Below, in pieces: positions 10,018 to 59,785 of a stretch of 64,000 bases of DNA; positions within the stretch are counted from its first letter, which is position 1, and the number at the start of each line of letters is the position of its first letter. The stretch is from sequence record PV800129.1; one strand, written 5' to 3'. The notes under the pieces were generated by a model. That model worked only from the letters and a program-made list of their open reading frames with translations, was not told the DNA's origin and searched no databases. Position numbers and translations under genes: made by a program. This DNA comes from Pseudomonas phage TIETA.

Positions 10018-10931
10018 AACAATATGACAGAGTGTATAAACTAACGCTCGGTAACACTGAATCCGGGCAAGGTGTAGAGATTACAAACCTCCACCCTGAC
10101 GGAAGTTTGAACAGAGAGGGACTTCAGTTCCGGTTCGATATCTCTAAAAGTTCAGATAACAAGAAGAGCGGAAACTCGGCGACTGTTGAGATATACAATC
10201 TGTCTATTGCCACTCTGAACATCCTTGAAACTGAATATTTGACGTGCCGACTAGAGGTTGGTTATAAGGAGATGGGAACTTCTGTTGTGCTAGATGGCAA
10301 CGTTGTTGAAACTTCGACTAGAAAGAGTGGCAATGATTACGTCACTCAGCTTATTCTAGGCGAAGGGTACACAGCACTAACAGAGACCAAGCTGAAGGGC
10401 ACAGTATCTCCGGGCAAAACTGTAAAGGATGTTATCGAAGAGATTCGTCTTCAAATGCCGGGAGTGGACAGAGGAGCTTATACAGGCCTCAATTGCAATA
10501 ACCCGATCATGTACGGCTATCAACTCCGTGGTCTAGCCAAAGACGCTCTAAACAGCGTGTGTGAAGCCAACAATATTGAATGGAACATCAGTGGAAACGT
10601 TCTAAACGTCACAGACGTTAACGGACCAACAACGAAGAGTGTTCAAATGGCTCCTCTCGTAAACAGAGAGACCGGTCTGATCGATATCCCATTCTACGCC
10701 AGTGCCAGCGGAACGGCACAGAAGAAAGATAAGCGGAGACGGAGAGGCGTTCAATTCAAATGCCTTCTCAATCCTGAGCTAACTCCCGGGGTTCTTGTCC
10801 GGGTAGAGTCGGATAGATTGTCAGGAACTTTCAGAATCAACAACGTCCGAATCTCGGGCGGATACAGAGACAACGAATGGTACACTGAATGTTGGTGTTC
10901 CGATCTTAACCAAGAGGATATTGACCAATGA
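10014..10931 (+). CDS. baseplate hub protein (late control D / gpP-like, putative)
   Basis: 305 aa; sits between the TMP-proximal genes and the spike gene, as in P2/Mu-like baseplates. Confidence 0.4.
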   Translation: MKQYDRVYKLTLGNTESGQGVEITNLHPDGSLNREGLQFRFDISKSSDNKKSGNSATVEIYNLSIATLNILETEYLTCRLEVGYKEMGTSVVLDGNVVETSTRKSGNDYVTQLILGEGYTALTETKLKGTVSPGKTVKDVIEEIRLQMPGVDRGAYTGLNCNNPIMYGYQLRGLAKDALNSVCEANNIEWNISGNVLNVTDVNGPTTKSVQMAPLVNRETGLIDIPFYASASGTAQKKDKRRRRGVQFKCLLNPELTPGVLVRVESDRLSGTFRINNVRISGGYRDNEWYTECWCSDLNQEDIDQ

Positions 10932-11668
10932 GGAGAACAGGCCTACAAGAGCTTCTGAACCTGCACTCGTCCACGGAAGGCTCGAAACAGTATACTGCCA
11001 TACCTTGTGTGGTATTGCGCGTTCTGGACGATTTTAGACGCCTTTCTGTCGATGTTAGACCAGTGGTCAATGACCTGTACAAAGACGGCACATCAGAAGA
11101 GCAACCAGAGATTCTATCTGTCCCTGTCATTATGCCGGGAACAGCTAACACCCTTATCAGCTTCCCATTGAATGTCGGGGATACGGTGTTGTGTGTATTC
11201 TCTCAAAGAACTATGGACGTGTTTAAAGGCTCTGCCACTGGACAGCCTCACACTCCAAACGATCTTCGTAAGTTCAACATGGCGGATGCCATTGCCATTC
11301 CCGGGCTGTTCACCTTCCCTAGGTCGATGAACGACCCTGCAAGACATAGTTGGCCACATGATACCAAAGACCTTACTATTGCCCACAACCTGATGACGGG
11401 ACAAGAGGCGGAAGTTAGGATCAAAGCCAATGGAGATATTCTAATCAACAGCCGCAAGACTATAAGCATTAATGCTCAAAATGTCAACGTCAAGTGTGCT
11501 TCACTCACTGTCGATGCAGCCCATACAACATGGAACGGGAACATTGCACATACAGGTAACTACGTGCAGACTGGTGGAACTTCTACATTCAACGGTATTC
11601 CATTCCATACCCACAAACACGGTGGTGTTATGCCGGGCGGTGGTGTTACTGCTGTCCCACAAGCTTAA
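10928..11668 (+). CDS. baseplate central spike (gpV-like) with His-rich apex
   Basis: 246 aa; C-terminal FHTHKHGGVMPGGG is a metal-binding HxH tip like P2 gpV / phi92 gp138 spike apices. Confidence 0.5.
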   Translation: MRRTGLQELLNLHSSTEGSKQYTAIPCVVLRVLDDFRRLSVDVRPVVNDLYKDGTSEEQPEILSVPVIMPGTANTLISFPLNVGDTVLCVFSQRTMDVFKGSATGQPHTPNDLRKFNMADAIAIPGLFTFPRSMNDPARHSWPHDTKDLTIAHNLMTGQEAEVRIKANGDILINSRKTISINAQNVNVKCASLTVDAAHTTWNGNIAHTGNYVQTGGTSTFNGIPFHTHKHGGVMPGGGVTAVPQA

Positions 11669-11679
11669 AAGGAGATCAT

Positions 11680-12051
11680 ATGGACTTGTTTGTCAACCCC
11701 GACACACATGACTTGGTTTTTATAAATGGTGAAGCTCCAGTCACTCAACGAATGGTTGATATTGTTGCTCAGCGACTAAAGATCAAACTGTACACATTCC
11801 TAGGTGAGTGGTTCTTGGATGATAGGATCGGCATCCCCTACTTCGAGAGGATTCTTGGTAAGTCTAGGAGCCTTCCCGCTGTTGACGCGATATTCCAATC
11901 TGAGATTATGAGAGACCCCGGCGTCCTTGAGATTACATCTTGGCAGTCGGGGATCGACCCTCACACACGTGAATACTCCATGGAGTTCACAGTCAGAACC
12001 ACAGACAATACAGAATCCCTTCCCATCACTTTCAGAATGATAGGAGTTTAA
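11680..12051 (+). CDS. baseplate wedge protein (gpW / gp25-like)
   Basis: 123 aa; RBS AAGGAG; immediately before the baseplate J gene. Confidence 0.5.
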   Translation: MDLFVNPDTHDLVFINGEAPVTQRMVDIVAQRLKIKLYTFLGEWFLDDRIGIPYFERILGKSRSLPAVDAIFQSEIMRDPGVLEITSWQSGIDPHTREYSMEFTVRTTDNTESLPITFRMIGV

Positions 12052-12052
12052 T

Positions 12053-13516
12053 ATGGCTGGAATTACAGCAGAAGGTCTAACGATTAAAGACTTGGACCAA
12101 ATCCTGACAGACTACAGAAACGTAGCCTCTCAGGTCTTCGCCGACCTAGTTTCAACTGGAGACGAAGTTGACACGTCTGGTAACTCTGCTCTAGGCCGTC
12201 TGATCGGCGTAGTTGCTCCATCGGACGAAGCTATCTGGGAAGTTATCCAGATGGTGTATAACTCCTTCAACCCGGCAGCCGCAACTGGCGTGGCTCTGGA
12301 CAACCTAGTGTCCTTCTCGGCAATTAGCCGGCATGCTGCCCGTCCGACCCGGGCTCAGGTTGTTCTAGAGGGCAACATCGACACCGTTATTAACTCGCCT
12401 CCCGCTAAGATGATTTCCAGCAGTACAGGCCGAGTGTTCCACCTGCTACAAGGCGTGATCCTCACTCCTAAAGCTTGCTCTGGTGTTGGAATCTTCCCTC
12501 AGACAGTAGGCAACGACCTGACATACGAGCTTAAGATGTACGTTGATGACATTAACACAACGTCTATCAAGTACACAAGCCCTACCACTGGTACAGTAAC
12601 ATCCGAGTCCATCCTAGCAGGACTGGCCGCAGACGTAGCTACAAATCACGGAAATACCTTGACAAGCTACGAACAGAATGGTATACTTTTCATAGTACCT
12701 ATTGACCCATTCAACACCAAGACTTTCGAAGAAGCCTCCAACCTGAGTATTCAGAAGGTTAGAAAGCTTGGTATCGCTGTTGACGACGTTATTGGTCCTG
12801 TGCCTCAGCAAGCTCTAGCTATCGATACGATCTCCATTCCTATTGCCGGATGGGACAGCGTTATCAACCCTGTTCCAGCTATCACTGGCCGTCTGCGTGA
12901 GACCGACGATGAGCTTCGCGAGAGATTTCGAAACTCTAAATTCGTACAAGCCACCAACATTCTGGAGTCCCTGATCGACGGTCTGATGAACGTAGAAGGA
13001 GTCGAGGATGTTAGGATTATCGAAAACGATACCGACAACCTAGACCCCGTTCACGGAGTCCCGGGTCACTCGTTCCTTCCAATCGTTCTTGGTGGTATTC
13101 CTACAGAGGTTGCACAGTCTATCTGGCTGAACAAGCCATTCGGGATTGGCTCTGTTGGAGATACAGAGGTTCAGGTGGTAGACAGTCTGGGCTATACACA
13201 TAGAGTCAACTACCAACGCCCTGTTGAGGTTCCAATCGAGATCAAGATCAGTGTAACAAACACAGGATCGATGCCAGAGAACATTGAAGATATCCTACGG
13301 CCAAGGATTGTAGCGTACGGAACTGAGAATTACAAGATCGGAGACGACGTAATTTATTCTCGATTCTATGCCCCAATCATGGAAATCCCGGGCTTCCAAG
13401 TGAACAGCCTGACGATTGCTAAGAAAGGACAAACTCAAGGTATGGCGAACATCGAAATCGGGTTCAAAGAAGTGGCTACATTCGCCGCAGCAGATATCAC
13501 CGTAACTACGGTGTAA
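12053..13516 (+). CDS. baseplate J-like protein
   Basis: 487 aa; size and position (gpW - gpJ - gpI - fiber) typical of P2/Mu-like baseplates. Confidence 0.55.
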   Translation: MAGITAEGLTIKDLDQILTDYRNVASQVFADLVSTGDEVDTSGNSALGRLIGVVAPSDEAIWEVIQMVYNSFNPAAATGVALDNLVSFSAISRHAARPTRAQVVLEGNIDTVINSPPAKMISSSTGRVFHLLQGVILTPKACSGVGIFPQTVGNDLTYELKMYVDDINTTSIKYTSPTTGTVTSESILAGLAADVATNHGNTLTSYEQNGILFIVPIDPFNTKTFEEASNLSIQKVRKLGIAVDDVIGPVPQQALAIDTISIPIAGWDSVINPVPAITGRLRETDDELRERFRNSKFVQATNILESLIDGLMNVEGVEDVRIIENDTDNLDPVHGVPGHSFLPIVLGGIPTEVAQSIWLNKPFGIGSVGDTEVQVVDSLGYTHRVNYQRPVEVPIEIKISVTNTGSMPENIEDILRPRIVAYGTENYKIGDDVIYSRFYAPIMEIPGFQVNSLTIAKKGQTQGMANIEIGFKEVATFAAADITVTTV

Positions 13517-20329: not shown

Positions 20330-20333
20330 TTAA

Positions 20334-20368
20334 GCCCCGGAAGCGAAAGCTTGCCGGGGCTCTTTGTT
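20334..20368. terminator. bidirectional rho-independent terminator between convergent operons
   Basis: GCCCCGG-n13-CCGGGGC hairpin flanked by A-rich (left) and T-rich (right) tracts, between the + gene ending 20329 and the - gene ending 20377. Confidence 0.6.
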
Positions 20369-20376
20369 ATGGGTTT

Positions 20377-20685
20377 TCAGCGAACAACTTGATAAACTTC
20401 GTCGAACAGTTCGTCAAGCTTCTGGATAACCTTTTTAGCCAGCTTCTTGCGAACTTTGTTAGCCTCTGGGCCGGAATGGAGTAGCTTCATATCGGTCGCG
20501 TTGCCCCAGTCCATCGCCCCGTTGTCGAACAGCACTTTAACATTCAGATGCATCGAGGCCGAGTCAATATCGACAACTACGCCGGTCGTCCGGGCGTTGG
20601 TCTTTTCGAAGGTAGGCCTTGGCATGTCTGTGTCCAGACTGCCAACCATAACAACCTGCCCTTTCTTAACGTCAGATAGTTCCAT
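20377..20685 (-). CDS. hypothetical protein (leftward island)
   Basis: 102 aa; RBS AAGGAGG. Confidence 0.5.
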   Translation of the reverse strand: MELSDVKKGQVVMVGSLDTDMPRPTFEKTNARTTGVVVDIDSASMHLNVKVLFDNGAMDWGNATDMKLLHSGPEANKVRKKLAKKVIQKLDELFDEVYQVVR

Positions 20686-20695
20686 TAAAACCTCC

Positions 20696-21016
20696 TTAAT
20701 CTAACCTCATTAGTGTGTTGAACTGATGCCTCAGAGACTTAAAAGCCTGTGGTCCGTCGTCTTCCGCTCCTTCATGAATGTGATGAGCTATAAGGTGTAT
20801 CAGTCCTCTGTCTCCCAGCAAAATAGAGCTAGGAATCTCTTTTATCCAAGCTACAAAGCAGCAGAAGTGCAATACCTCCGGCATAGAAGCCTTGAAGCTG
20901 GAATCGTCCAGCTTCGACAGGCGGTTATACGTGGCTTTGAGATCGGGATAACTCAACTCATACGTTGCATAATCGTCGATGTGCTCATCACCACTCACCA
21001 TATATTGCAAGCTCAT
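20696..21016 (-). CDS. hypothetical protein (His-rich HHIHEGAEDD motif)
   Basis: 107 aa from ATG 21016, overlapping the stop of the upstream gene; the longer ORF to 21070 is unlikely. Confidence 0.4.
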   Translation of the reverse strand: MSLQYMVSGDEHIDDYATYELSYPDLKATYNRLSKLDDSSFKASMPEVLHFCCFVAWIKEIPSSILLGDRGLIHLIAHHIHEGAEDDGPQAFKSLRHQFNTLMRLD

Positions 21017-21017
21017 T

Positions 21018-21827
21018 CTACACCTTCTTGCCGCCTTCTGCAAGGCGAGCTTCCCTCTTGTGGTCTGCACGAGTCATGTTGTACTCGATCTTCTCGATCA
21101 TAGCCCCTGCAACATCCAGACCCCGTACATTCGCATAGTCCATGATACGAATGGTAGCGTCTGCCAGTTCCACCTCTTCCATCTTCCGCTCTGGCAAGTG
21201 ATCGTCCATCAAATCCTTACGGACGCCTTCAGCAGCTTCCGCAATTTCAGTGGTAACGAGCATCAGCATGTGCAGAGCATCACGTTGAATAGGCTCTCCT
21301 GTGACAAGATCAGTATTCCACTTGCGATTAACAACCTCCAGACCAGTCATCATGTTGTTAAAACCGTTCACAAACTCGAAAACGGATTCACGTTCGAATA
21401 GCTCACCGAACGTCGGCTCCTGATCCTCAACAATTGCAGTGCTGAAAGGCCACTCCATCCAAGCATCGTGGAATTTTTTGATAAGCTCTTGTTCATCAAT
21501 GTACGAGAAGGCCACCTGTCCATCGATCACATTGATAGCTTCGGCTCCCTCCATCCAAATGCACGTACCAATAATACTTGGATCGATTCGCAGAGAAGTC
21601 TTGTAGACTTCTTTCCACGATCTCCATCCTACCATACCATTGCCAAAGTACACAAGGAGTGGCATATAGAATCCTCGCTTTTCCTGCTCTGGAGTTTCTA
21701 TAACTACAACAAACGCCGGAACTTTCTCCCCATCTGGGCGTTCAGTCAGTACGAAGTCTCCCAAGTTGACATTCTCCCGACTAGCTGGGCGAAGAGCTTC
21801 CTCGATATGGTCTTTAACTTTACTCAT
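21018..21827 (-). CDS. two-domain protein with C-terminal MazG-like nucleotide pyrophosphohydrolase domain
   Basis: 269 aa from ATG 21827 (RBS GAGGAGG); C-terminal TTEIAEAAE...EEVELADATIRIMDYA resembles the MazG/HisE EExxE motifs; N-terminal about 150 aa unknown. Confidence 0.45.
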   Translation of the reverse strand: MSKVKDHIEEALRPASRENVNLGDFVLTERPDGEKVPAFVVVIETPEQEKRGFYMPLLVYFGNGMVGWRSWKEVYKTSLRIDPSIIGTCIWMEGAEAINVIDGQVAFSYIDEQELIKKFHDAWMEWPFSTAIVEDQEPTFGELFERESVFEFVNGFNNMMTGLEVVNRKWNTDLVTGEPIQRDALHMLMLVTTEIAEAAEGVRKDLMDDHLPERKMEEVELADATIRIMDYANVRGLDVAGAMIEKIEYNMTRADHKREARLAEGGKKV

Positions 21828-21978
21828 TAACTTCGTCCTCCTCACAGAACATTTCAAAATAACAATCACAGCATACCAGCATGCCGCCGTCATTTACAAT
21901 TTCTTCGACCGGGAGAATGCTTCCACAGCATTCACACCCAGCCCGTTCGACACCACCTGCACAGGCCCAATAGTCCAT
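21820..21978 (-). CDS. Cys-rich mini-protein (zinc-ribbon-like)
   Basis: 52 codons MDYWACAGG...CECCGS...CCDCYFEMFCEE; RBS GGAGGG; overlaps the start of the MazG-like gene. Confidence 0.3.
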   Translation of the reverse strand: MDYWACAGGVERAGCECCGSILPVEEIVNDGGMLVCCDCYFEMFCEEDEVNE

Positions 21979-21990
21979 CTTCACCCTCCT

Positions 21991-23142
21991 TCACTCCTCC
22001 TTCAGAAGGTACTCGTTGCTAATAACCTTGAAACTAAAGTCTCGGCTCATGCTTTTGAACACCAAACCTTCCCGGTACTTACCGTTCAACGCAGACTCTC
22101 CGCTAGCCATTTCAATTACATCTTGCATGTCTTTTGGAACGCCTACGTCCCACATGTACACCGGCACATGTTTAACATCCTCTTCGCCGTCATCAGCTAG
22201 CGCGTTCAGGATTCCCAGAGTGGCCAGTCGCTCTTCTGGAAGATAGTAACGACTCTCCGAAATGTTGTAGATATCGTACACATAGTATTCCGGTTTGTCA
22301 ACTCCCTCGAAGTTGCCTTGAATATTCGGTGCAACCAGTTCACCCTGAAGGGCGATATTTAGACCAAACTCCCGGAGACGTTCACCAAGATTAAGCTCTT
22401 CTGCCATCGCAGTGAAGTGATTGGAGTCTTTCTTAATCACACGCTTCCAGCCACGACCCTTAAAGAAGTTCTTGACAGCCGTGAAGAACCCGATCTTCTC
22501 GTCTTCCAGACGGAAACCGACATTTCGAGACGCCACGCCTACTTCTCCATCCTTGTGCCAGATGGTGAGAGACGAGCCGTCCAGCTTGAATGTCACTTCA
22601 AACTTCTCGTCCTTCTGATGAGCCTGATCGTAAGCCATCTGAATATTCTGTACGCGGGCCTGATCCGTTTTCGGGATGAAGTTGGGGAACCCTAGCTTAG
22701 AGGTGCCTTTTCGGTCGCCCTTAGCCTTTGCTCCGCCGTCAATAGCCGCCTGTTCTGAAGGCTTGACATACTTCAGAATACCCATCTGGTCAGTGAGGTC
22801 TTGATCCTCTTTAAGATTAGGAAGGCCGGCAGCATCAACAGGCACGATCAGACCTTGGCTAAGCTCTTTACGCAGCTTCATAGTTTTGATCCGAGAATAT
22901 TCTTTTCCATCCCGCTCAACCATATTACGGCCTCGCAGGAATTCAAAGATAGGGTTGTCCATAGGGACCATGGAATCCACTTCAATGTAGATTGCCAGAT
23001 CACCAGCCTGATACTCACCTCGTTTGATTACGCACTGCCAGCCACCAACAAGCGCCAGATCAAGGCTGTCAGCGTTAGGATGGGTCTTCACATCGTCGAT
23101 ACGCACCACTCGGGCTAGTACGCGGTCTTGGGAATTGCTCAT
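21991..23142 (-). CDS. ATP-dependent RNA ligase with N-terminal tRNA-binding (Myf/CsaA-like OB) domain
   Basis: 383 aa; N-terminal VKTHPNADSLDLALVGG...GDLAIY matches the tRNA-binding OB consensus; nucleotidyltransferase motif I FKLDGSS (KxDG); RBS AAGGAGG. Confidence 0.6.
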   Translation of the reverse strand: MSNSQDRVLARVVRIDDVKTHPNADSLDLALVGGWQCVIKRGEYQAGDLAIYIEVDSMVPMDNPIFEFLRGRNMVERDGKEYSRIKTMKLRKELSQGLIVPVDAAGLPNLKEDQDLTDQMGILKYVKPSEQAAIDGGAKAKGDRKGTSKLGFPNFIPKTDQARVQNIQMAYDQAHQKDEKFEVTFKLDGSSLTIWHKDGEVGVASRNVGFRLEDEKIGFFTAVKNFFKGRGWKRVIKKDSNHFTAMAEELNLGERLREFGLNIALQGELVAPNIQGNFEGVDKPEYYVYDIYNISESRYYLPEERLATLGILNALADDGEEDVKHVPVYMWDVGVPKDMQDVIEMASGESALNGKYREGLVFKSMSRDFSFKVISNEYLLKEE

Positions 23143-23173
23143 ATATTTCCTCCTTTATTTTAAATTTACTAGA

Positions 23174-23407
23174 TTAATTGTCAAACCAACCGAGATTAAG
23201 GGCGTGCTCCAAGGCTGCGAGAAGATTCTCAGCGTCCATGCGGTCGCTAATTGACACGCGGCGCCATGTGATGCCCTCTTTGTTTCTAGCTACAATATAG
23301 GCCGAGGAACTATCTCTTCCCTTTATTAACGAGCTTGCAAACTCAGTCTTTCCCCCGAACACTATCTCGCTAACTTTTTGGGACGGCTCTCGAATATCAA
23401 TCTTCAT
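23174..23407 (-). CDS. small protein, paralog A (MKIDIR...EVSEIVFG...DAENLLxALExAxxLGWF)
   Basis: 78 aa from ATG 23407 with RBS AAGGAG; clearly paralogous to 23445..23678. Confidence 0.55.
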   Translation of the reverse strand: MKIDIREPSQKVSEIVFGGKTEFASSLIKGRDSSSAYIVARNKEGITWRRVSISDRMDAENLLAALEHALNLGWFDN

Positions 23408-23444
23408 CGTGCTCTCCTTGTTAAAAATTGTTAGATTTGATAGA

Positions 23445-23678
23445 TTACTTGTTAAACCAACCGAGGTCAATAGCTCGCTCTAAGGCCAGTAGCAGATTTT
23501 CAGCATCTAGAAGGTCACGGATCGCGATCCAACTGCCGCTGTCTCCCGGTAGACCATCTGTGATATATACAGGTATGTCGCTGTACTCGCTCTTTTTAAG
23601 CCCGCAGGCACAGGCTACATTGTCTCCGAAGACAATCTCGCTGACTTCCCTTGCCTCGTCTCGAATATCAATCTTCAT
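23445..23678 (-). CDS. small protein, paralog B; first gene of the leftward operon
   Basis: 78 aa from ATG 23678 with RBS AGGAG; the longer ORF to 23807 would run into the promoter region. Confidence 0.55.
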   Translation of the reverse strand: MKIDIRDEAREVSEIVFGDNVACACGLKKSEYSDIPVYITDGLPGDSGSWIAIRDLLDAENLLLALERAIDLGWFNK

Positions 23679-23712
23679 TATGTTTTTCTCCTGTTGTGTT
23701 GAAAGTCGTTGT

Positions 23713-23741
23713 ATTCTGCCCGGATATCTTCGCAGTGTCAA
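23713..23741 (-). promoter_or_regulatory. sigma70-type promoter for the leftward island
   Basis: minus strand TTGACA-17-CAGAAT; the -35 lies 5 bp from the -35 of the divergent rightward promoter. Confidence 0.4.
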
Positions 23742-23746
23742 TAGCC

Positions 23747-23774
23747 TTGACAAGAAAATAATCCGTGGTAAAGT
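23747..23774 (+). promoter_or_regulatory. sigma70-type promoter (rightward, divergent from the leftward promoter)
   Basis: TTGACA-16-TAAAGT; transcribes about 280 nt of non-coding leader before a second promoter. Confidence 0.45.
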
Positions 23775-23775
23775 G

Positions 23776-24058
23776 TGAGGCCTGCTGGAGAGAAATGTCC
23801 ACGTCACTCACCGGCCAGCAGTATAGCGTATGAAGAGGAAAGCTGCAAGCGCATCCTGAGTCGAATCTGAGAACAGGGCAGCGACGACCCGTAAGGGGAA
23901 AGCTCAGAGCCTATAAGGAGCCCATGCTCCCCGCTCACCGACTCATCTGCATAATGAGAGCGAGAGGCAGACCAGAGGCATGTCTTAGGCGGAAAAATCC
24001 GTATGGCAAGCCTAGGGACAGGTCTGCCTCCACTACCGATCTATCTGCATACAAGAAC
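23776..24058 (+). ncRNA. candidate structured leader / small RNA region
   Basis: about 280 nt without a convincing ORF, between two promoters; inverted repeats CCTGCTGG/CCAGCAGG and GGCAGACC/GGTCTGCC could form stems. Confidence 0.25.
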
Positions 24059-24087
24059 TTGACAGTATCCTGTAAACCGTGTAGAGT
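24059..24087 (+). promoter_or_regulatory. sigma70-type promoter
   Basis: TTGACA-17-TAGAGT, 31 nt upstream of the ATG at 24119. Confidence 0.55.
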
Positions 24088-24118: not shown

Positions 24119-24316
24119 ATGAAGCATGTTATTCACCGTGAAGACCTTATCGACCTACTACGTGATCGTATGAAGCTTGAAGCTCTAGAAGCTGGCGGGG
24201 TGGACAACTGGGACTGGTATGAGGCCTCGCTAATCGACTGCGGATACTTCGATGACGATGGCCGGGAGCTAGAGGTCGAAGCTCTTGCAGATTGCTTCCC
24301 AACCGTAGGTGCGTAA
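24119..24316 (+). CDS. hypothetical acidic protein
   Basis: 65 aa; RBS GAGGAG. Confidence 0.5.
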   Translation: MKHVIHREDLIDLLRDRMKLEALEAGGVDNWDWYEASLIDCGYFDDDGRELEVEALADCFPTVGA

Positions 24317-24826: not shown

Positions 24827-25081
24827 ATGGAAATTATTTCGAGAGGGACGCTCCCTCAAGAGGTTTTGTTTACGGCTAAGTGCCACCACTGCTTGAGCAT
24901 TCTCCGGGCTAAGAGGTCGGAACTTGAGTATGTTTCGTTCTCATTCTGCCGTCCCGGAGAGACGGGATACTACTCCGCAGAATGCCCTGTCTGTCACGAA
25001 GAGGTGACTGCTTGGGTTGCAGTCCCTGTCACCCATGTAGCACCTCCTACGACAGAGTACGTAGCAAAGGGGCGTGAATAA
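24827..25081 (+). CDS. small Cys/His zinc-binding-like protein
   Basis: 84 aa with CHHC...CPVCHEE; RBS GAGGAGG. Confidence 0.45.
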   Translation: MEIISRGTLPQEVLFTAKCHHCLSILRAKRSELEYVSFSFCRPGETGYYSAECPVCHEEVTAWVAVPVTHVAPPTTEYVAKGRE

Positions 25082-25082
25082 C

Positions 25083-25472
25083 ATGGATCAATTAGCGGGT
25101 TTTATGGGCGAACCTTTTGTAATTGCATTCGATTATGATGAGACAATCAGTCTCTACCCTCTTGCCTTCCGAATCGTCATGGATACCTTCAGGGGCTTTG
25201 GAGGCGCTTTCAATGTGATCGTAGTCACTGCACGCCACCCTGACAACAGCGGAGAGTTAGAGTGGCTACGGGACTACGGGTTCCCGATCTATTTCACGGC
25301 ACAGAAGGCAAAGCGACCATTCATGGAAAATCTTGGAATAAAAGTCTCTGTATGGGTTGACGACAACCCGTTCAGCGTGGATAATGACCTTCCTCCGTGG
25401 ACAGTGGAGCAATACGATGCCTACATGGAGGCAAAGAAGCAACGAGCTATCAACAGAGGGAGTAAAGCATGA
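25083..25472 (+). CDS. HAD-superfamily phosphatase-like protein (possible nucleotide / polynucleotide 3-prime phosphatase)
   Basis: about 129 aa; N-terminal FDYDETIS resembles HAD motif I (DxDxT); alternative GTG start at 25074. Confidence 0.4.
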   Translation: MDQLAGFMGEPFVIAFDYDETISLYPLAFRIVMDTFRGFGGAFNVIVVTARHPDNSGELEWLRDYGFPIYFTAQKAKRPFMENLGIKVSVWVDDNPFSVDNDLPPWTVEQYDAYMEAKKQRAINRGSKA

Positions 25473-38488: not shown

Positions 38489-38671
38489 GTGCAGCGCGAT
38501 ATTAGTAAAACTATAGCAGAACTTCGGGACTTGATCGAAGCTGTCTCTATGCTCGACGAGGCCTTGGTTATGATGCAGAAAAACGGACTATATGATACGG
38601 ACTTGTACAAACGTATCGATGCATTTTTGTATTATCAACCGGGCGAGGGCGAGTGGGAGGAAGTAGAATGA
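38489..38671 (+). CDS. small acidic protein, paralog 2 (YDTDLYKRIDAFLYYQ)
   Basis: 60 aa from GTG 38489 after RBS GAGGAGG. Confidence 0.35.
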   Translation: MQRDISKTIAELRDLIEAVSMLDEALVMMQKNGLYDTDLYKRIDAFLYYQPGEGEWEEVE

Positions 38672-39447
38672 GCAGCAAGAAACACTTTGTAATCTCTGAT
38701 ACACAATGCAAGCCGGGTATCAGTCTGGATTACATGGAAGCCATCGGTAAATATATCGTGGCAAAACGTCCCGATGTTGTGATTCACATCGGGGACCACT
38801 TTGACCTAGCTAGCCTGTCATCCTACGATAAGGGTAAGCGCTCCTCTGAGGGCCGTAGATACGCCGAAGACGTTCAAGTCGGACGTGAGGGTCTGGATCG
38901 GCTGCTTAAGCCTCTGTGGGAGCTACAGGAGCGTCAACGGGCTAATCGGAAGAAGGTGTACCAACCTCGGTTGATTTTCACACTGGGCAACCACGAAGAG
39001 CGGGCTGATCGAGCAGCGAACGATAACCCTGAGTTGTATGGCACCGTTGGGAGTGAGGAGCTTGGGATTCAGGACTACGGTTTTGAGGTTGTCCCGTTCC
39101 TCAAGCCTATCGAAGTGGATGGCATCTACTACGTCCACTACCTGCAAAACCACTTCACTGGCAAGCCACTAGGTGGTACAGCGAACAACATGCTCAAGGC
39201 TGCCGGTCATTCGTTTGTCATGGGCCACCGTCAGCTTCTGGACTGGGCGATCCATCCTACAATTGATGGCAAACAAAGGCTTGGCATTGTGACTGGAGCG
39301 TGCTATCCTCACGACGAGGCTTACAAAGGCTATCAAGGCAACAATCACTTCCGTGGCTGCGTGATGATTCACGAAGTGAAAGATGGTTTCGGCCTTCCAA
39401 TGCCAGTGAGTCTAGACTTTATGATGGAGAAAGGAGGCTTCAAATGA
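38653..39447 (+). CDS. Ser/Thr protein phosphatase-like metallophosphoesterase
   Basis: 264 aa; calcineurin-like motifs VIHIGDHFD and TLGNHEER. Confidence 0.7.
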   Translation: MGGSRMSSKKHFVISDTQCKPGISLDYMEAIGKYIVAKRPDVVIHIGDHFDLASLSSYDKGKRSSEGRRYAEDVQVGREGLDRLLKPLWELQERQRANRKKVYQPRLIFTLGNHEERADRAANDNPELYGTVGSEELGIQDYGFEVVPFLKPIEVDGIYYVHYLQNHFTGKPLGGTANNMLKAAGHSFVMGHRQLLDWAIHPTIDGKQRLGIVTGACYPHDEAYKGYQGNNHFRGCVMIHEVKDGFGLPMPVSLDFMMEKGGFK

Positions 39448-47135: not shown

Positions 47136-47384
47136 ATGGCTACAACAGAGAAGATCATCGAGTATGTCTCGGCCTGTATCGAACGCTTGCAAGAGGACGT
47201 AACTGGGTACTCGGAGAACTTCCGTGACAGGGCGTTATCTAATCGCACAGGGTATATTCACGGGCTTATCACTATGGCTGAAATGAATGAGCAGGTGAGT
47301 ATCGAGGACTGCGACAAGCTCCGTGTAAAGCTTCGTGAAGCTGCTGAGGCTGTGTTGAACGTACTGGATTCCAAAATTAACTAG
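47136..47384 (+). CDS. hypothetical protein
   Basis: 82 aa from ATG 47136 after RBS GAGGAGG. Confidence 0.4.
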   Translation: MATTEKIIEYVSACIERLQEDVTGYSENFRDRALSNRTGYIHGLITMAEMNEQVSIEDCDKLRVKLREAAEAVLNVLDSKIN

Positions 47385-47395
47385 GAGGTGTTCTG

Positions 47396-47881
47396 ATGAA
47401 TATGAAAGAGATTGTGCAGGCTTTGATTGTCGTTGTCGCTCTGACTCTCGCAGCAATAGGTTTTGTAGTCGGGATTACTGCGTTGGCCAACAAGAGCGCG
47501 CCCGCCGAGGATATTGTCGTGTCTACTGAAGACGGCACCATCAATCTCGGTCGCTCCGTGAAGAGCGAGAAGCTGCTGTATAGCATGTGCATCAAGGTAG
47601 AAGACCGCAAACCTGCTTGTGAATTCACCACCAAGGACCGTGTTCTTAGCGAAGTGAAACAGGTTATGCGCCCGGGCGAGGCTACGGCCCGCGATATTAA
47701 GATTGCAGTAAACGCGGCTGTGACGTATACTGGTGAGAACGGGCAGGAAGCAACCTCTCTGATTACCCCGAAAGGTAAGTATCTCCCGGCTGGCACCCCG
47801 TCTGAAGTACATATTCAGGCTATTGCGAATCTGTTCGACAGCGTGTACAATGACTACAAACAAAACTTCAGCAAGATGTGA
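47396..47881 (+). CDS. membrane-anchored periplasmic protein (possible superinfection-exclusion / envelope-modifying factor)
   Basis: 161 aa; N-terminal signal-anchor helix; strongly biased codon usage; RBS TAGGAGG. Confidence 0.45.
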   Translation: MNMKEIVQALIVVVALTLAAIGFVVGITALANKSAPAEDIVVSTEDGTINLGRSVKSEKLLYSMCIKVEDRKPACEFTTKDRVLSEVKQVMRPGEATARDIKIAVNAAVTYTGENGQEATSLITPKGKYLPAGTPSEVHIQAIANLFDSVYNDYKQNFSKM

Positions 47882-47890
47882 GGAGGACTC

Positions 47891-48085
47891 ATGAAAGCAC
47901 AGCCTAAAGAAGTAGAAACCCTGTCCCTCGACAAGCGCCCCAAGGCAGGTGATGTTGTTCGACTGCGATCTGACGGTAAAACCTACGAGGTAAATGCTGT
48001 ATATCCCACGGCAGTAGGCTGGGAAGCGATTCTCCGCAACATGTACGACAAGACCAAAACTGTAACTGTCGGCATGGAGTGGTGA
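47891..48085 (+). CDS. hypothetical protein
   Basis: 64 aa; RBS GAGGAGG. Confidence 0.4.
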   Translation: MKAQPKEVETLSLDKRPKAGDVVRLRSDGKTYEVNAVYPTAVGWEAILRNMYDKTKTVTVGMEW

Positions 48086-48086
48086 A

Positions 48087-48317
48087 ATGTCTGCGACTAA
48101 CAAGTGTGTCAACTTTCTCCCTGTCACTCCAGACGGGCGGGTGATCGTCCGGTTCGGTAAAAAGAGGTTAGGATGGCTTGGTAAAGAGGGTAAAAAGTGG
48201 TATTATTACCCTTATGGGTGTGAAGGTAGGATCAAGTCCGAAGGCTTCAAGACTCTCGCTGATATTAAGAGGTGGATTCGAGGCCCGATCTCTGTCTGGC
48301 CGGGGCCGCTAGCCTGA
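48087..48317 (+). CDS. hypothetical protein
   Basis: 76 aa. Confidence 0.4.
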   Translation: MSATNKCVNFLPVTPDGRVIVRFGKKRLGWLGKEGKKWYYYPYGCEGRIKSEGFKTLADIKRWIRGPISVWPGPLA

Positions 48318-58362: not shown

Positions 58363-58878
58363 ATGACTACCGAAAACCTTTCCTCTAAAGAAATCGAAAC
58401 CGCCGTTGACGAATTCCTGAAGTCAATCGATGTTACCGTGGCCACCGTGTGTCGAGGTGAGCGCAATAGTGAAGGTTGGGTGCATGACCTGTGGGATGTA
58501 AGTTTCATCCGTGGCGATGGCCTCCGTGGAGTTCTCGACACTGAATTCCGCACAGGCGTCGGGCATCGCAAAGCCTCGATTCCCATGCCCGCCGACATCC
58601 GCCGTCTGGCCCCTAACATCCTGATGCGGGTAGAGTGGGAAAAACGTTACATCAAGGCTGTAGCACCTGAGGCTACCTGTATCCTGTCCAGCCTTATCCG
58701 GGACTCTGAAGCGGGCGGATACACTTTCGAGGAGTTCTGTGGAGAATTCGGCTACGATACTGATAGCCGAAAGGCCTTCGACACTTACATGGCTTGTCAG
58801 AATATTCTGAACAAGGTGCGGAATTTCTTCACTCAGGAAGAAATTAAACACATAGCGCGTCTGGTGGATCGATACTGA
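58363..58878 (+). CDS. hypothetical protein
   Basis: 171 aa. Confidence 0.5.
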   Translation: MTTENLSSKEIETAVDEFLKSIDVTVATVCRGERNSEGWVHDLWDVSFIRGDGLRGVLDTEFRTGVGHRKASIPMPADIRRLAPNILMRVEWEKRYIKAVAPEATCILSSLIRDSEAGGYTFEEFCGEFGYDTDSRKAFDTYMACQNILNKVRNFFTQEEIKHIARLVDRY

Positions 58879-58885
58879 AAAAAGG

Positions 58886-58913
58886 TTGACAGCTTGGGCC
58901 ATTCGCGTAGAAT
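58886..58913 (+). promoter_or_regulatory. consensus promoter cassette (near-identical copy)
   Basis: GTTGACAGCTTGGGCCATTCGCGTAGAATGGCTCTCAAGCAAGACAAACCAC. Confidence 0.65.
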
Positions 58914-58953
58914 GGCTCTCAAGCAAGACAAACCACAAACCCGGAGACTCCCC

Positions 58954-59481
58954 ATGAACAAGCCAATGAACACTTTCGCATACGCCCACTACGTCGCCCG
59001 CATGGACAAGGCCTCTGGCACTAGCCTGCCCTACGCCACCCTGTTCCGCATCGCCCTGCGTAACGCCTACCGCAAGCCGGGTGTCCGCCAGTACGATTGT
59101 GCAGCACTCGTCGAGGATATCAAAGCGCGTGAACTGGTCCAAAAGCGCATTCGGGCTGAAAAAGCAGTAGTGATGGCGGCAGTAATGCGTGCAATCCGTA
59201 CTGGCTTCACTGTTAGCGTGAAGGATGGCAGCGACGGTGAATGGGTGGTGAAGAAATCTACCGATATCAAGGAAATCTCTGACAGCCTGCAATCGACCGA
59301 TGAAGATATCATCCGCTTCCGCAAGGGTGACGGCCCGGACAACATCGTCGGCTCTATGTGGGCAATCTACGGTAACAGCGCTGGCGAAGTGATCGCCGAC
59401 TGGACCGAAAACGCCACCATGGCCATGATTATGGCTCCGGCTGAGCGGAAGATGGAAAAATACGCGGAATTGGGTATCTAA
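58954..59481 (+). CDS. hypothetical protein
   Basis: 175 aa from ATG 58954; the ORF track start at 58894 lies within the promoter. Confidence 0.45.
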   Translation: MNKPMNTFAYAHYVARMDKASGTSLPYATLFRIALRNAYRKPGVRQYDCAALVEDIKARELVQKRIRAEKAVVMAAVMRAIRTGFTVSVKDGSDGEWVVKKSTDIKEISDSLQSTDEDIIRFRKGDGPDNIVGSMWAIYGNSAGEVIADWTENATMAMIMAPAERKMEKYAELGI

Positions 59482-59484
59482 TGC

Positions 59485-59513
59485 TTGACGGGGCCCGAAA
59501 AGGGCCCCATAAT
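59485..59513 (+). promoter_or_regulatory. promoter with a GGGCCC-GAAAA-GGGCCC hairpin in the spacer
   Basis: TTGACG-17-CATAAT. Confidence 0.45.
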
Positions 59514-59551
59514 GCACCCATACCAACCAAGCAATCCTAGAGGGCAACACC

Positions 59552-59785
59552 ATGGCTACACTGATTATCGGCAACGTAAACTACCATAACCATCGTCTAG
59601 TCGATGAAATCGCTGGCGATGCTGGCTACAAGGGTGCCGCCCGCTTGGTGGACGAATGCACTCGCAAAATCACCTTGCTAGCGCCTTCTGGAATTCCTGC
59701 CATCGACGCCAAGGAGCGTGCTGAAGTCGCCGCAATGATTGGTGAGTATATTCTAGCAGGATTCGAAGTTTCGATTCAGCACTAA
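59552..59785 (+). CDS. hypothetical protein
   Basis: 77 aa. Confidence 0.4.
   Translation: MATLIIGNVNYHNHRLVDEIAGDAGYKGAARLVDECTRKITLLAPSGIPAIDAKERAEVAAMIGEYILAGFEVSIQH

Follow-up and report, generated by a model that had tools for sequence, protein, structure and literature searches.

A conserved leftward operon of Pakpunavirus with a predicted Rnl5-family RNA ligase, and a candidate structured RNA in its control region

The 64,000-nucleotide (nt) stretch of Pseudomonas phage TIETA analyzed here (PV800129.1; hereafter the window) contains a compact block of seven leftward genes, referred to as the island, which encodes an ATP-dependent RNA ligase and a MazG-like fusion protein. A preliminary description of this DNA had combined the island with two distant phosphatase-type genes into a toolkit for tRNA repair. 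Our analysis leads to a different reading. The island is probably one conserved accessory operon of the genus Pakpunavirus, that is, a collection of host-takeover and counter-defense genes with largely independent products and not a co-evolved machine, and its ligase, which falls into the Rnl5 family, would act on ligatable nicks in helices.

The island is a conserved leftward operon

Sequence comparison assigns the window to a Pakpunavirus myovirus of P. aeruginosa of the PAK_P1/PaP1/JG004 group. A 3.6-kb block of the window was 99.4% identical to Pseudomonas phage PaYy-2 and matched 121 Pseudomonas phage records, in 116 of which at least 80% of the block was covered. The seven minus-strand open reading frames (ORFs), previously delimited at 20377-23807, were present at this place and correspond to annotated genes in the phages PaYy-2 and EPA1. 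Two of them carry informative labels in GenBank, "RNA ligase" and "pyrophosphatase" or "nucleoside triphosphate pyrophosphohydrolase". The outer limit had to be corrected, position 23807 being that of an upstream GTG codon, while the real start is the ATG at 23678.

In the ORF list, the genes follow one another in the same direction, separated by 1-37 nt or, in one case, overlapping by 8 nt, and the GC skew is negative over exactly 21-24 kb. They sit between a GC-rich hairpin and a back-to-back pair of sigma70-like promoters (Table 1). The tight head-to-tail arrangement, the conserved promoter pair, the single hairpin and the coverage among relatives argue for one transcription unit. Host RNA polymerase would read this unit leftward from the sigma70 promoter and stop at the hairpin, which it would have in common with the converging late genes. 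When all seven island proteins were compared with Pfam and NCBIfam, the ligase alone was recognized.

Table 1. Features of the island and of its flanks (positions in the window; aa, amino acids)
Feature	Position	Strand	Basis
GC-rich hairpin between converging late (+) genes and island (-)	20333..20361	.	fold, EPA1 annotation
102-aa protein, last operon gene	20377..20685	-	phrog_2827, E = 1e-44, unknown function
106-aa ORFan	20696..21016	-	phrog_7083, unknown function
269-aa Tudor/SH3-like + MazG-type fusion	21018..21827	-	PHROG, predicted structure, motif
52-aa Cys-rich zinc-ribbon-like protein	21820..21978	-	phrog_7461; CxxC ... CxxC
383-aa predicted ATP-dependent RNA ligase, Rnl5 family	21991..23142	-	PF21189 + PF09414, TIGR02306, NgrRnl
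Internal sigma70-like promoter match, TTGACA-16-TAAAAT, 11/12	23157..23184	-	consensus scan only
77-aa mini-protein, paralog A (extra copy)	23174..23407	-	phrog_4794; ATG at 23407
77-aa mini-protein, paralog B, promoter-proximal first gene	23445..23678	-	phrog_4794; ATG at 23678
Leftward sigma70-like island promoter, TTGACA-17-CAGAAT	23713..23741	-	consensus scan; EPA1 promoter annotation
Rightward sigma70-like promoter with extended -10, TTGACA-16-TG-TAAAGT	23747..23774	+	consensus scan
Structured non-coding RNA, ~270 nt, at least 8 helices, from rightward promoter	23782..24050	+	covariation; 3' end undefined
Second rightward sigma70-like promoter, TTGACA-17-TAGAGT, before first protein gene	24059..24087	+	consensus scan; EPA1 promoter at equivalent place
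65-aa T7 gp5.9 RecBCD-inhibitor-family protein, first rightward protein gene	24119..24316	+	PF25708, phrog_6234

The ligase belongs to the Rnl5 family

The presence of an ATP-dependent RNA ligase with a KxDG motif was confirmed. Pfam identified an N-terminal OB-fold domain (PF21189, PHA02142 OB-fold domain; E = 1e-29, residues 9-102 of 383) and a C-terminal RNA_ligase domain (PF09414; E = 3.6e-17, residues 180-374 of 383). The protein also scored 158.6 bits (E = 1.8e-46) against the NCBIfam model TIGR02306 (RNA_lig_DRB0094), an equivalog built on Deinococcus DRB0094 (DraRnl) with a cut-off of 151.15. Its best solved relative was NgrRnl of Naegleria gruberi (5cot; E = 2e-57), with an alignment that spans both domains and extends to residue 381. 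The domain order is thus an N-terminal OB domain followed by a C-terminal nucleotidyltransferase (NTase), with nothing after motif V. All eight ATP- and metal-binding active-site residues that could be mapped are kept, with D56, K124, R163, K186, D188, E268, E358 and K372 of the island ligase equivalent to D53, K121, R149, K170, D172, E227, E312 and K326 of NgrRnl; R4 lies outside the aligned region. D56 and K124 belong to the OB domain and are equivalent to the residues that position the pyrophosphate leaving group, and K186 is the motif I nucleophile of the KxDG element. The roles of these NgrRnl residues in a two-metal adenylylation mechanism have been described (PMC7261155). Based on the TIGR02306 score above the cut-off, the match to NgrRnl and the conserved active site, the ligase is by its sequence a complete Rnl5-family enzyme of the DraRnl/NgrRnl type. 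The Pfam model of T4 Rnl1 (PF09511) reached only 18.5 bits on this protein, below its cut-off of 28.3, in a region that overlaps the generic NTase core.

The island ligase shares with the Rnl5 family the combination of an N-terminal OB and a C-terminal nucleotidyltransferase domain without C-terminal appendage. Phage homologs of this family were noted from the start, for example in Aeromonas phage 44RR2.8t, and we found 338 phage records with Rnl5 genes, among them records of Otagovirus-like, Nankokuvirus, phiKZ-like, Aeromonas T4-like and jumbo phages. Compared to NgrRnl, the island ligase is ~40 aa longer due to an insert at about residues 212-252, between the matched segments. Unlike DraRnl and NgrRnl it is phage-encoded and its gene is followed by that of a small zinc-ribbon protein, and its activity is predicted from sequence.

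The OB domain had earlier been read as a tRNA-binding domain of the Myf/CsaA type. An OB domain is indeed present, and the N-domain of DraRnl, with which the family was founded, has been called a putative homolog of the tRNA-binding OB fold B2 of PheRS beta (PMC1807946). However, the tRNA_bind profile PF01588 was not matched by residues 1-128 of the ligase even at E <= 10, where only PF21189 was reported. The OB domain of NgrRnl functions in the adenylylation of the ligase (PMC7261155). Since the OB-plus-NTase arrangement defines the Rnl5 architecture and the OB domain has this function, it is a catalytic helper within the family and not an add-on for tRNA recognition.

The Rnl5 enzymes characterized so far join 3'-OH and 5'-PO4 ends at nicks in a duplex, provided that the 3'-OH strand is RNA (PMC7261155); no other strand of the nicked duplex needs to be RNA (PMC5397189). 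They act poorly on single-stranded substrates and differ from anticodon-loop ligases of the T4 Rnl1 type. The family assignment therefore predicts a kind of repairable damage other than that expected of a T4-like ligase, namely 3'-OH/5'-PO4 nicks in helices, such as the cuts of Toprim tRNases, for which no end healing is needed. In this respect the island is a correction, as a ligase treated by annotators and in one published discussion as part of a T4-like tRNA-repair system is predicted to be of the Rnl5 nick-sealing type. The records that carry Rnl5 genes include Pakpunavirus phages characterized as therapy candidates against P. aeruginosa.

A Tudor-like module is fused to a MazG-type domain

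The C-terminus of the 269-aa protein had been described as MazG-like, which fold, motif and PHROG matches all supported, while sequence searches for PF03819 and in PDB gave no match. In particular, no Pfam family, MazG PF03819 included, was found at E <= 0.1 and no NCBIfam model matched, nor did searches with the protein or with its profile retrieve a PDB sequence. PHROG families of pyrophosphatases matched residues 166-269. The AlphaFold model (predicted local distance difference test, pLDDT, of 80.5 overall and 82-98 over the C-domain) consists of two small beta-barrels followed by a helical bundle. Residues ~24-101 are predicted to form tandem Tudor/SH3-like beta-barrels, and residues ~140-262 an all-alpha NTP (nucleoside triphosphate) pyrophosphohydrolase domain of the MazG type, with the four-helix-bundle fold of that superfamily. 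The metal-binding motif of the MazG/all-alpha NTP pyrophosphohydrolase superfamily is EXXE-(12-28)-EXXD. The 269-aa protein contains E194xxE197 and E220xxD223, and these four residues were invariant in 60 sequences.

In BFVD, the model matched phage "MazG-like" and "NTP-PPase_u5" proteins, several of which carry other N-terminal modules, and the structural matches of the MazG domain include S-2L MazZ, solved bound to dGDP. A homolog search found the full-length Tudor-MazG architecture only in Pakpunavirus and in phage EM; the C-terminal ~100 residues recur in stand-alone proteins of 155-190 aa with up to 69% identity. The Tudor-like fusion is a lineage-specific variant of a MazG-type protein. 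It has the acidic EXXE...EXXD residues in common with phage MazG-like enzymes such as Atd1, cyanophage MazG, S-2L MazZ and the CDD family NTP-PPase_u5, but differs from them in being missed by the Pfam MazG model and in having ~125 N-terminal residues arranged as tandem Tudor/SH3-like barrels. The fusion protein is a candidate for a targeted nucleotide hydrolase. A precedent for counter-defense by such enzymes is Atd1 of Pectobacterium phage PcCB7V, a MazG-like protein that depletes (p)ppGpp (bioRxiv 10.1101/2022.06.09.495361).

The island compared with a T4-like tRNA-repair system

The preliminary description proposed that the island, a HAD-type phosphatase gene near 25083 and a metallophosphoesterase gene at 38653 together repair tRNA cut by anticodon nucleases, as Rnl1 and Pnkp of T4 do against PrrC. 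Some resemblance exists: T4 and the present phage are virulent, and each has a gene for an ATP-dependent RNA ligase that could plausibly serve counter-defense. The lineage also invests in tRNA, EPA1 having 17 tRNA genes, and the likeness of the DraRnl OB domain to the PheRS beta B2 fold would fit a tRNA substrate. A tRNA-repair function has in fact already been suggested for this gene set. The putative anti-defense functions listed in 2025 for the Pakpunavirus Adele comprise "two distinct RNA ligases", a polynucleotide kinase and an enzyme of the MazG-like type, and tRNA repair was proposed (PMC12846349). The statement that the island is not a described system was consequently too strong, the more so as its genes are annotated in GenBank.

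While the identities of the genes largely hold, the T4-like frame is weak. In T4 Rnl1, tRNA specificity resides in a C-terminal domain, and the enzyme acts on breaks of the anticodon loop once their ends have been healed; the island ligase belongs to a different family, fails the PF09511 cut-off and carries an OB domain that speaks for adenylylation and not for tRNA binding. Moreover, the island lacks a kinase or phosphatase of its own, and none of its proteins matched kinase or phosphoesterase families, including 2',3'-phosphoesterases, in Pfam, PHROG or NCBIfam. Such enzymes do occur in the lineage, at another place. In EPA1, the P-loop kinase EPA1_24 (AAA_33; phrog_505 polynucleotide kinase) adjoins the Rnl1-family ligase EPA1_25 (PF09511, 37.5 bits; phrog_562). 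Both lie at 10811-12155 of EPA1 beside NAD-salvage genes, ~40 kb from the island and outside the window. The presence of this pair in addition to the Rnl5 ligase counts in favor of the toolkit, but EPA1_24 and EPA1_25 are predicted to be the actual T4-like pair of the lineage, separate from the island.

The two distant partners fared differently. The 132-aa protein encoded at 25074-25472 (+) displays HAD-like motifs when inspected by eye (FDYDET, which is DxDxT-like, VVTAR, and a later DD within VDDN), yet its assignment as a HAD phosphatase received no support from Pfam or PDB and its PHROG families are of unknown function. Homologs of this protein have been labeled 'HAD-like' or 'phosphatase' by some depositors (phiK7A1, 'HAD-like'; REC). 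In contrast, the 264-aa protein at 38653-39447 is a metallophosphoesterase as claimed (PF00149, 28.1 bits against a cut-off of 21.5; phrog_221, E = 7e-77). Against a link to a toolkit speaks its position, as the gene lies ~15 kb from the island among genes for a nuclease, an HNH endonuclease and thymidylate synthase, that is, among replication and nucleotide-metabolism genes. Taken together, we regard a T4-like tRNA-repair toolkit as unlikely.

Gene order in other phages bears on whether the island forms a unit. In the P. syringae phages Kremar and REC, whose ligases are ~47% identical to that of the island, the ligase gene is again part of a short reversed island, which follows the lysis genes and has no MazG gene. 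In the Nankokuvirus PAK_P5 it is co-oriented with the primase/helicase and polymerase genes and located just upstream of them, and in vB_PseuGesM_254 the neighbors are different again. Ligase and MazG genes are linked only in Pakpunavirus and in phage EM. As the two are not co-conserved outside the genus and the second copy of the 77-aa gene is optional, the island does not behave as a unit, and on the comparative evidence it is to be classified as an accessory operon, not as a demonstrated system.

A role in replication is the main alternative. Here, the ligase would seal nicks with a ribonucleotide 3'-OH (RNA primers, embedded ribonucleoside monophosphates, RNA:DNA hybrids) and the MazG protein would sanitize or bias the deoxynucleoside triphosphate (dNTP) pool, the island being a replication accessory located next to the replication genes. 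The substrate requirement of Rnl5 enzymes, with RNA needed only on the 3'-OH strand of the duplex nick (PMC7261155; PMC5397189), is in line with this idea, and so is the position of the PAK_P5 ligase gene just upstream of the replication genes. Loss of DraRnl sensitizes Deinococcus to ionizing radiation (PMC5397189). For the MazG domain, cyanophage MazG prefers dGTP and dCTP (cited in PMC12846349), and the structural matches to dGDP-bound S-2L MazZ agree with an action on dNTPs. On the other hand, the lineage already has a DNA ligase (EPA1_34), and in both Pakpunavirus and Otagovirus-like phages the Rnl5 ligase is transcribed separately from, and opposite to, the replication genes. We regard a replication accessory as an unlikely explanation for the operon.

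Proposed function of the operon

In the accessory-operon reading that we prefer, the ligase would adenylylate K186 with ATP, assisted by the OB domain, and would then close nicks of the 3'-OH/5'-PO4 kind where the 3'-OH strand of the duplex is RNA, as suggested by the biochemistry of DraRnl and NgrRnl. Stable RNAs nicked in helices, such as tRNA stems and rRNA, would be the likeliest substrates. The nicks could come from host nucleases that leave ligatable ends (Toprim-type tRNases) or could be collateral of the massive RNA turnover caused by the phage, and with ends of this kind no end-healing enzyme would be required. A suitable nuclease is known, since the Toprim tRNase P2-OLD leaves 5'-phosphate and 3'-hydroxyl ends and a single nick at one of the sites that it cuts in the anticodon stem is resealed by nick-joining ligases without healing (PMC12445682). 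Breaks in the anticodon loop would be handled by the separate kinase and Rnl1 pair elsewhere in the genome. The MazG domain probably removes a nucleotide harmful to infection, be it an alarmone or a non-canonical or antiviral NTP, and the N-terminal barrels of the 269-aa protein may be a targeting module.

Several points weigh against this interpretation. What Rnl5 ligases do physiologically has been called "uncharted" (PMC5397189), with radiation sensitivity in Deinococcus as the one known phenotype of Rnl5 loss, and a DNA- or replication-linked role of the ligase would fit equally well. Sequence does not reveal on which substrate the MazG domain acts, the characterized phage MazG proteins differing in this regard. 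The -10 element of the leftward promoter (CAGAAT) is weak, and early timing is deduced solely from the sigma70-like hexamers. Finally, the comparison of gene neighborhoods covers three lineages, and the conserved gene order within the genus could reflect functional coupling.

Small proteins of the island

The gene downstream of the ligase encodes the Cys-rich mini-protein of 52 aa that had been noted before. Its CxxC...CxxC pattern occurs in all orthologs, C15/C18 and C36/C39 being conserved in Pakpunavirus, and its gene shares its last 8 nt with the beginning of the 269-aa gene. The corresponding slot of the distantly related phage Kremar, directly after the ligase gene, holds a protein of 63 aa that also has the CxxC...CxxC pattern. 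This makes the pair of ligase and zinc-ribbon protein the most conserved part of the island.

Two tandem paralogs precede the ligase gene. They are true paralogs with 45% identity (E = 2e-20), as previously assumed, but consist of 77 and not 78 aa. The family was found at 158 places in 119 records, with a second copy in about a third of the relatives. The promoter-distal copy (A) is absent from many Pakpunavirus genomes, among them the four loci L005-L008 with PAK_P1 and MAG1, and the tandem duplication is thus not fixed in the genus. An exhaustive profile search revealed a wider uncharacterized family of 64 representative clusters with proteins of 70-86 aa (full-length matches, E <= 1e-3); a word-indexed search had retrieved three clusters only. 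Conserved are an N-terminal IDIR...F(A/G)D motif and a C-terminal amphipathic helix (...A.NLIKAL.KAI.LGW). No relative was found in Pfam or PDB, and the AlphaFold2 model was poor (pLDDT 54). A weak relative (E ~1e-4) is encoded 2 kb upstream of the ligase in PAK_P5.

The remaining two proteins, of 106 and 102 aa, were correctly listed as unknowns and belong to PHROG families of unknown function. The 106-aa protein is restricted to Pakpunavirus, where it is 90-99% conserved, and formed one cluster only among 5.8 billion proteins. The 102-aa protein varies more among relatives than any other island protein (59-91% identity) and matched DUF7258 weakly, below the cut-off. In a pairwise comparison it weakly resembled the first of the two Tudor-like barrels in the 269-aa protein (E = 0.07), which may point to a remote duplication.

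A structured RNA next to the operon

Outside the leftward operon, in the same control region, lies a stretch (23782-24050) that is almost invariant in Pakpunavirus relatives, while the flanking genes differ by 10-13%. A coding function was ruled out, as relatives differ in it by indels of 13 and 19 nt and by hairpin lengths that are not multiples of 3. A blastn search detected the stretch in 155 phage records, with ~72-76% identity in those of P. syringae phages, and a motif scan of IMG/VR together with nhmmer extended the family, found in Pakpunavirus and Otagovirus-like phages, to diverse IMG/VR contigs.

In an alignment of 18 sequences, eight helices with 42 pairs were identified. Of all cells, 87.4% were paired, compared to 36-45% in slid controls, in which the 3' partners of the helices were shifted. 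Compensatory changes occurred in 31 of the 42 pairs, and the covariation score reached 0.514, while the slid controls gave 0.09-0.15. The observed values were not attained by any of 500 shuffles. The minimum free energy was unimpressive when taken alone (z-score of -1.6), and it is hence covariation, not stability, that constitutes the evidence for the structure. The promoter of the RNA, CTTGACA-N17-TGnTAnnAT, is invariant across paralogs and genera, and helix P1 starts at about +1.

Rfam contained no match to the window at gathering thresholds, and at E <= 10 returned only chance-level hits to eukaryotic long non-coding RNAs (lncRNA) and snoRNA; four other members of the RNA family likewise had no match. 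A resemblance by eye to RNase P (GAGGAAAG) or to tmRNA was followed up and rejected, neither Rfam nor ARAGORN giving a match. The RNA was also not found in the literature searched, where sRNA1 and sRNA2 of PAK_P3 are different sequences near tRNA genes.

The complete genome of EPA1, the one examined in this respect, has two copies of the RNA, one at each point where transcription diverges. The second copy (21884-22200 of EPA1) is 73% identical and precedes the tRNA cluster, in the second of the intergenic regions from which transcription diverges, and Kremar has a copy at the equivalent second position (1465-1786 of the Kremar locus). The RNAs of HK022, putL and putR, are antitermination RNAs. 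The arrangement in EPA1 resembles them in placement alone, with two paralogous structured RNAs that each directly follow a strong host-type promoter heading a long operon, whereas the phage RNA described here is about four times larger.

A direct repeat of 10-12 nt flanks the 3' domain of the RNA, with CUCAUCUGCAU at ~23941-23952 and CUAUCUGCAU at ~24040-24050. Its seven variable nucleotides are identical within each RNA and different between RNAs, so that the two repeats co-vary by identity and not by complementarity. The repeat sequence ATCTGCAT has two occurrences in the window, each of them within the RNA, and there was thus no target in trans within the window.

These repeats, and the location of the RNA, raise the question whether ligase operon and RNA form one module in which the ligase uses the RNA as substrate, guide or cofactor, for instance if the RNA were processed at the direct repeats and then re-joined or circularized. 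The divergent arrangement of one RNA copy and the Rnl5 operon persists in phages whose ligases are no more than 34-48% identical. This copy, A, lies ~0.5-5 kb from the ligase gene in Pakpunavirus, REC, Kremar and the loci L122, L060, L113, L110 (ligase 44% identical) and L094 (34%, a partial match). Still, the second copy in EPA1 lies at the other point of divergence and at a great distance from the ligase, Kremar has a copy at the equivalent position, and no RNA was detected in the ~4.5-kb flanks of the Rnl5 ligase genes of PAK_P5 and vB_PseuGesM_254. Given these cases, the shared genome architecture is the simpler explanation of the linkage and accounts for it alone, which makes a joint module very improbable.

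These phage RNAs of ~270-300 nt apparently form a family not described before. The broader proposal, that they are a new functional class, either reprogramming host RNA polymerase in cis for the long rightward operons or acting as partner or substrate of the ligase, is tentative, and we put it forward as a minor possibility. If confirmed, the RNA would enlarge by one family the very few structured RNAs described for virulent phages, and it may explain how transcription is organized from the two divergence points of these phages. As a partner or substrate of the ligase, it would offer the first physiological handle on Rnl5 enzymes.

Control elements and neighboring genes

The hairpin at the downstream end of the island folds at -24.1 kcal/mol (centroid -23) with a z-score of -2.8, and EPA1 is annotated with a terminator at this end of the block and a promoter at the other. 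A bidirectional terminator, as described earlier, is plausible. The hairpin itself was substantiated by fold and annotation, but its U-tracts are weak and interrupted and a generic terminator scan did not call it.

Both members of the divergent promoter pair reported at 23713-23774 were recovered by a consensus scan. Their -35 boxes are 5 nt apart. In six relatives the -35 and -10 hexamers of both promoters are invariant while the leftward spacer is variable, the pattern expected of a functional promoter. The internal promoter match (23157-23184) is flanked by the ligase gene and the extra 77-aa paralog, and may give the ligase a promoter of its own in genomes with the 77-aa duplication.

The island was said to be the only minus-strand block, which is true within the window. 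Eight other long minus-strand ORFs were tested (for example 58423-59574 and 47381-48127), none of which had a PHROG match, and in the corresponding region of EPA1 all genes are on the plus strand. The complete genome has a second, larger leftward block, EPA1_4-48, outside the window. The frame at 58423-59574 (-), open for 383 aa, lies antisense to a run of small plus-strand early genes, has no PHROG match and is unannotated in relatives; it is probably a chance open frame.

On the rightward side, the first protein gene encodes a 65-aa protein that matched PF25708 (E = 1.2e-13, 51.2 bits against a cut-off of 24.5) and phrog_6234, a host RecBCD nuclease inhibitor (E = 5e-12). With a gp5.9-type RecBCD inhibitor as its first rightward gene, the shared control region would appear to drive anti-host functions. 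The gene lies outside the island and is annotated as hypothetical in relatives.

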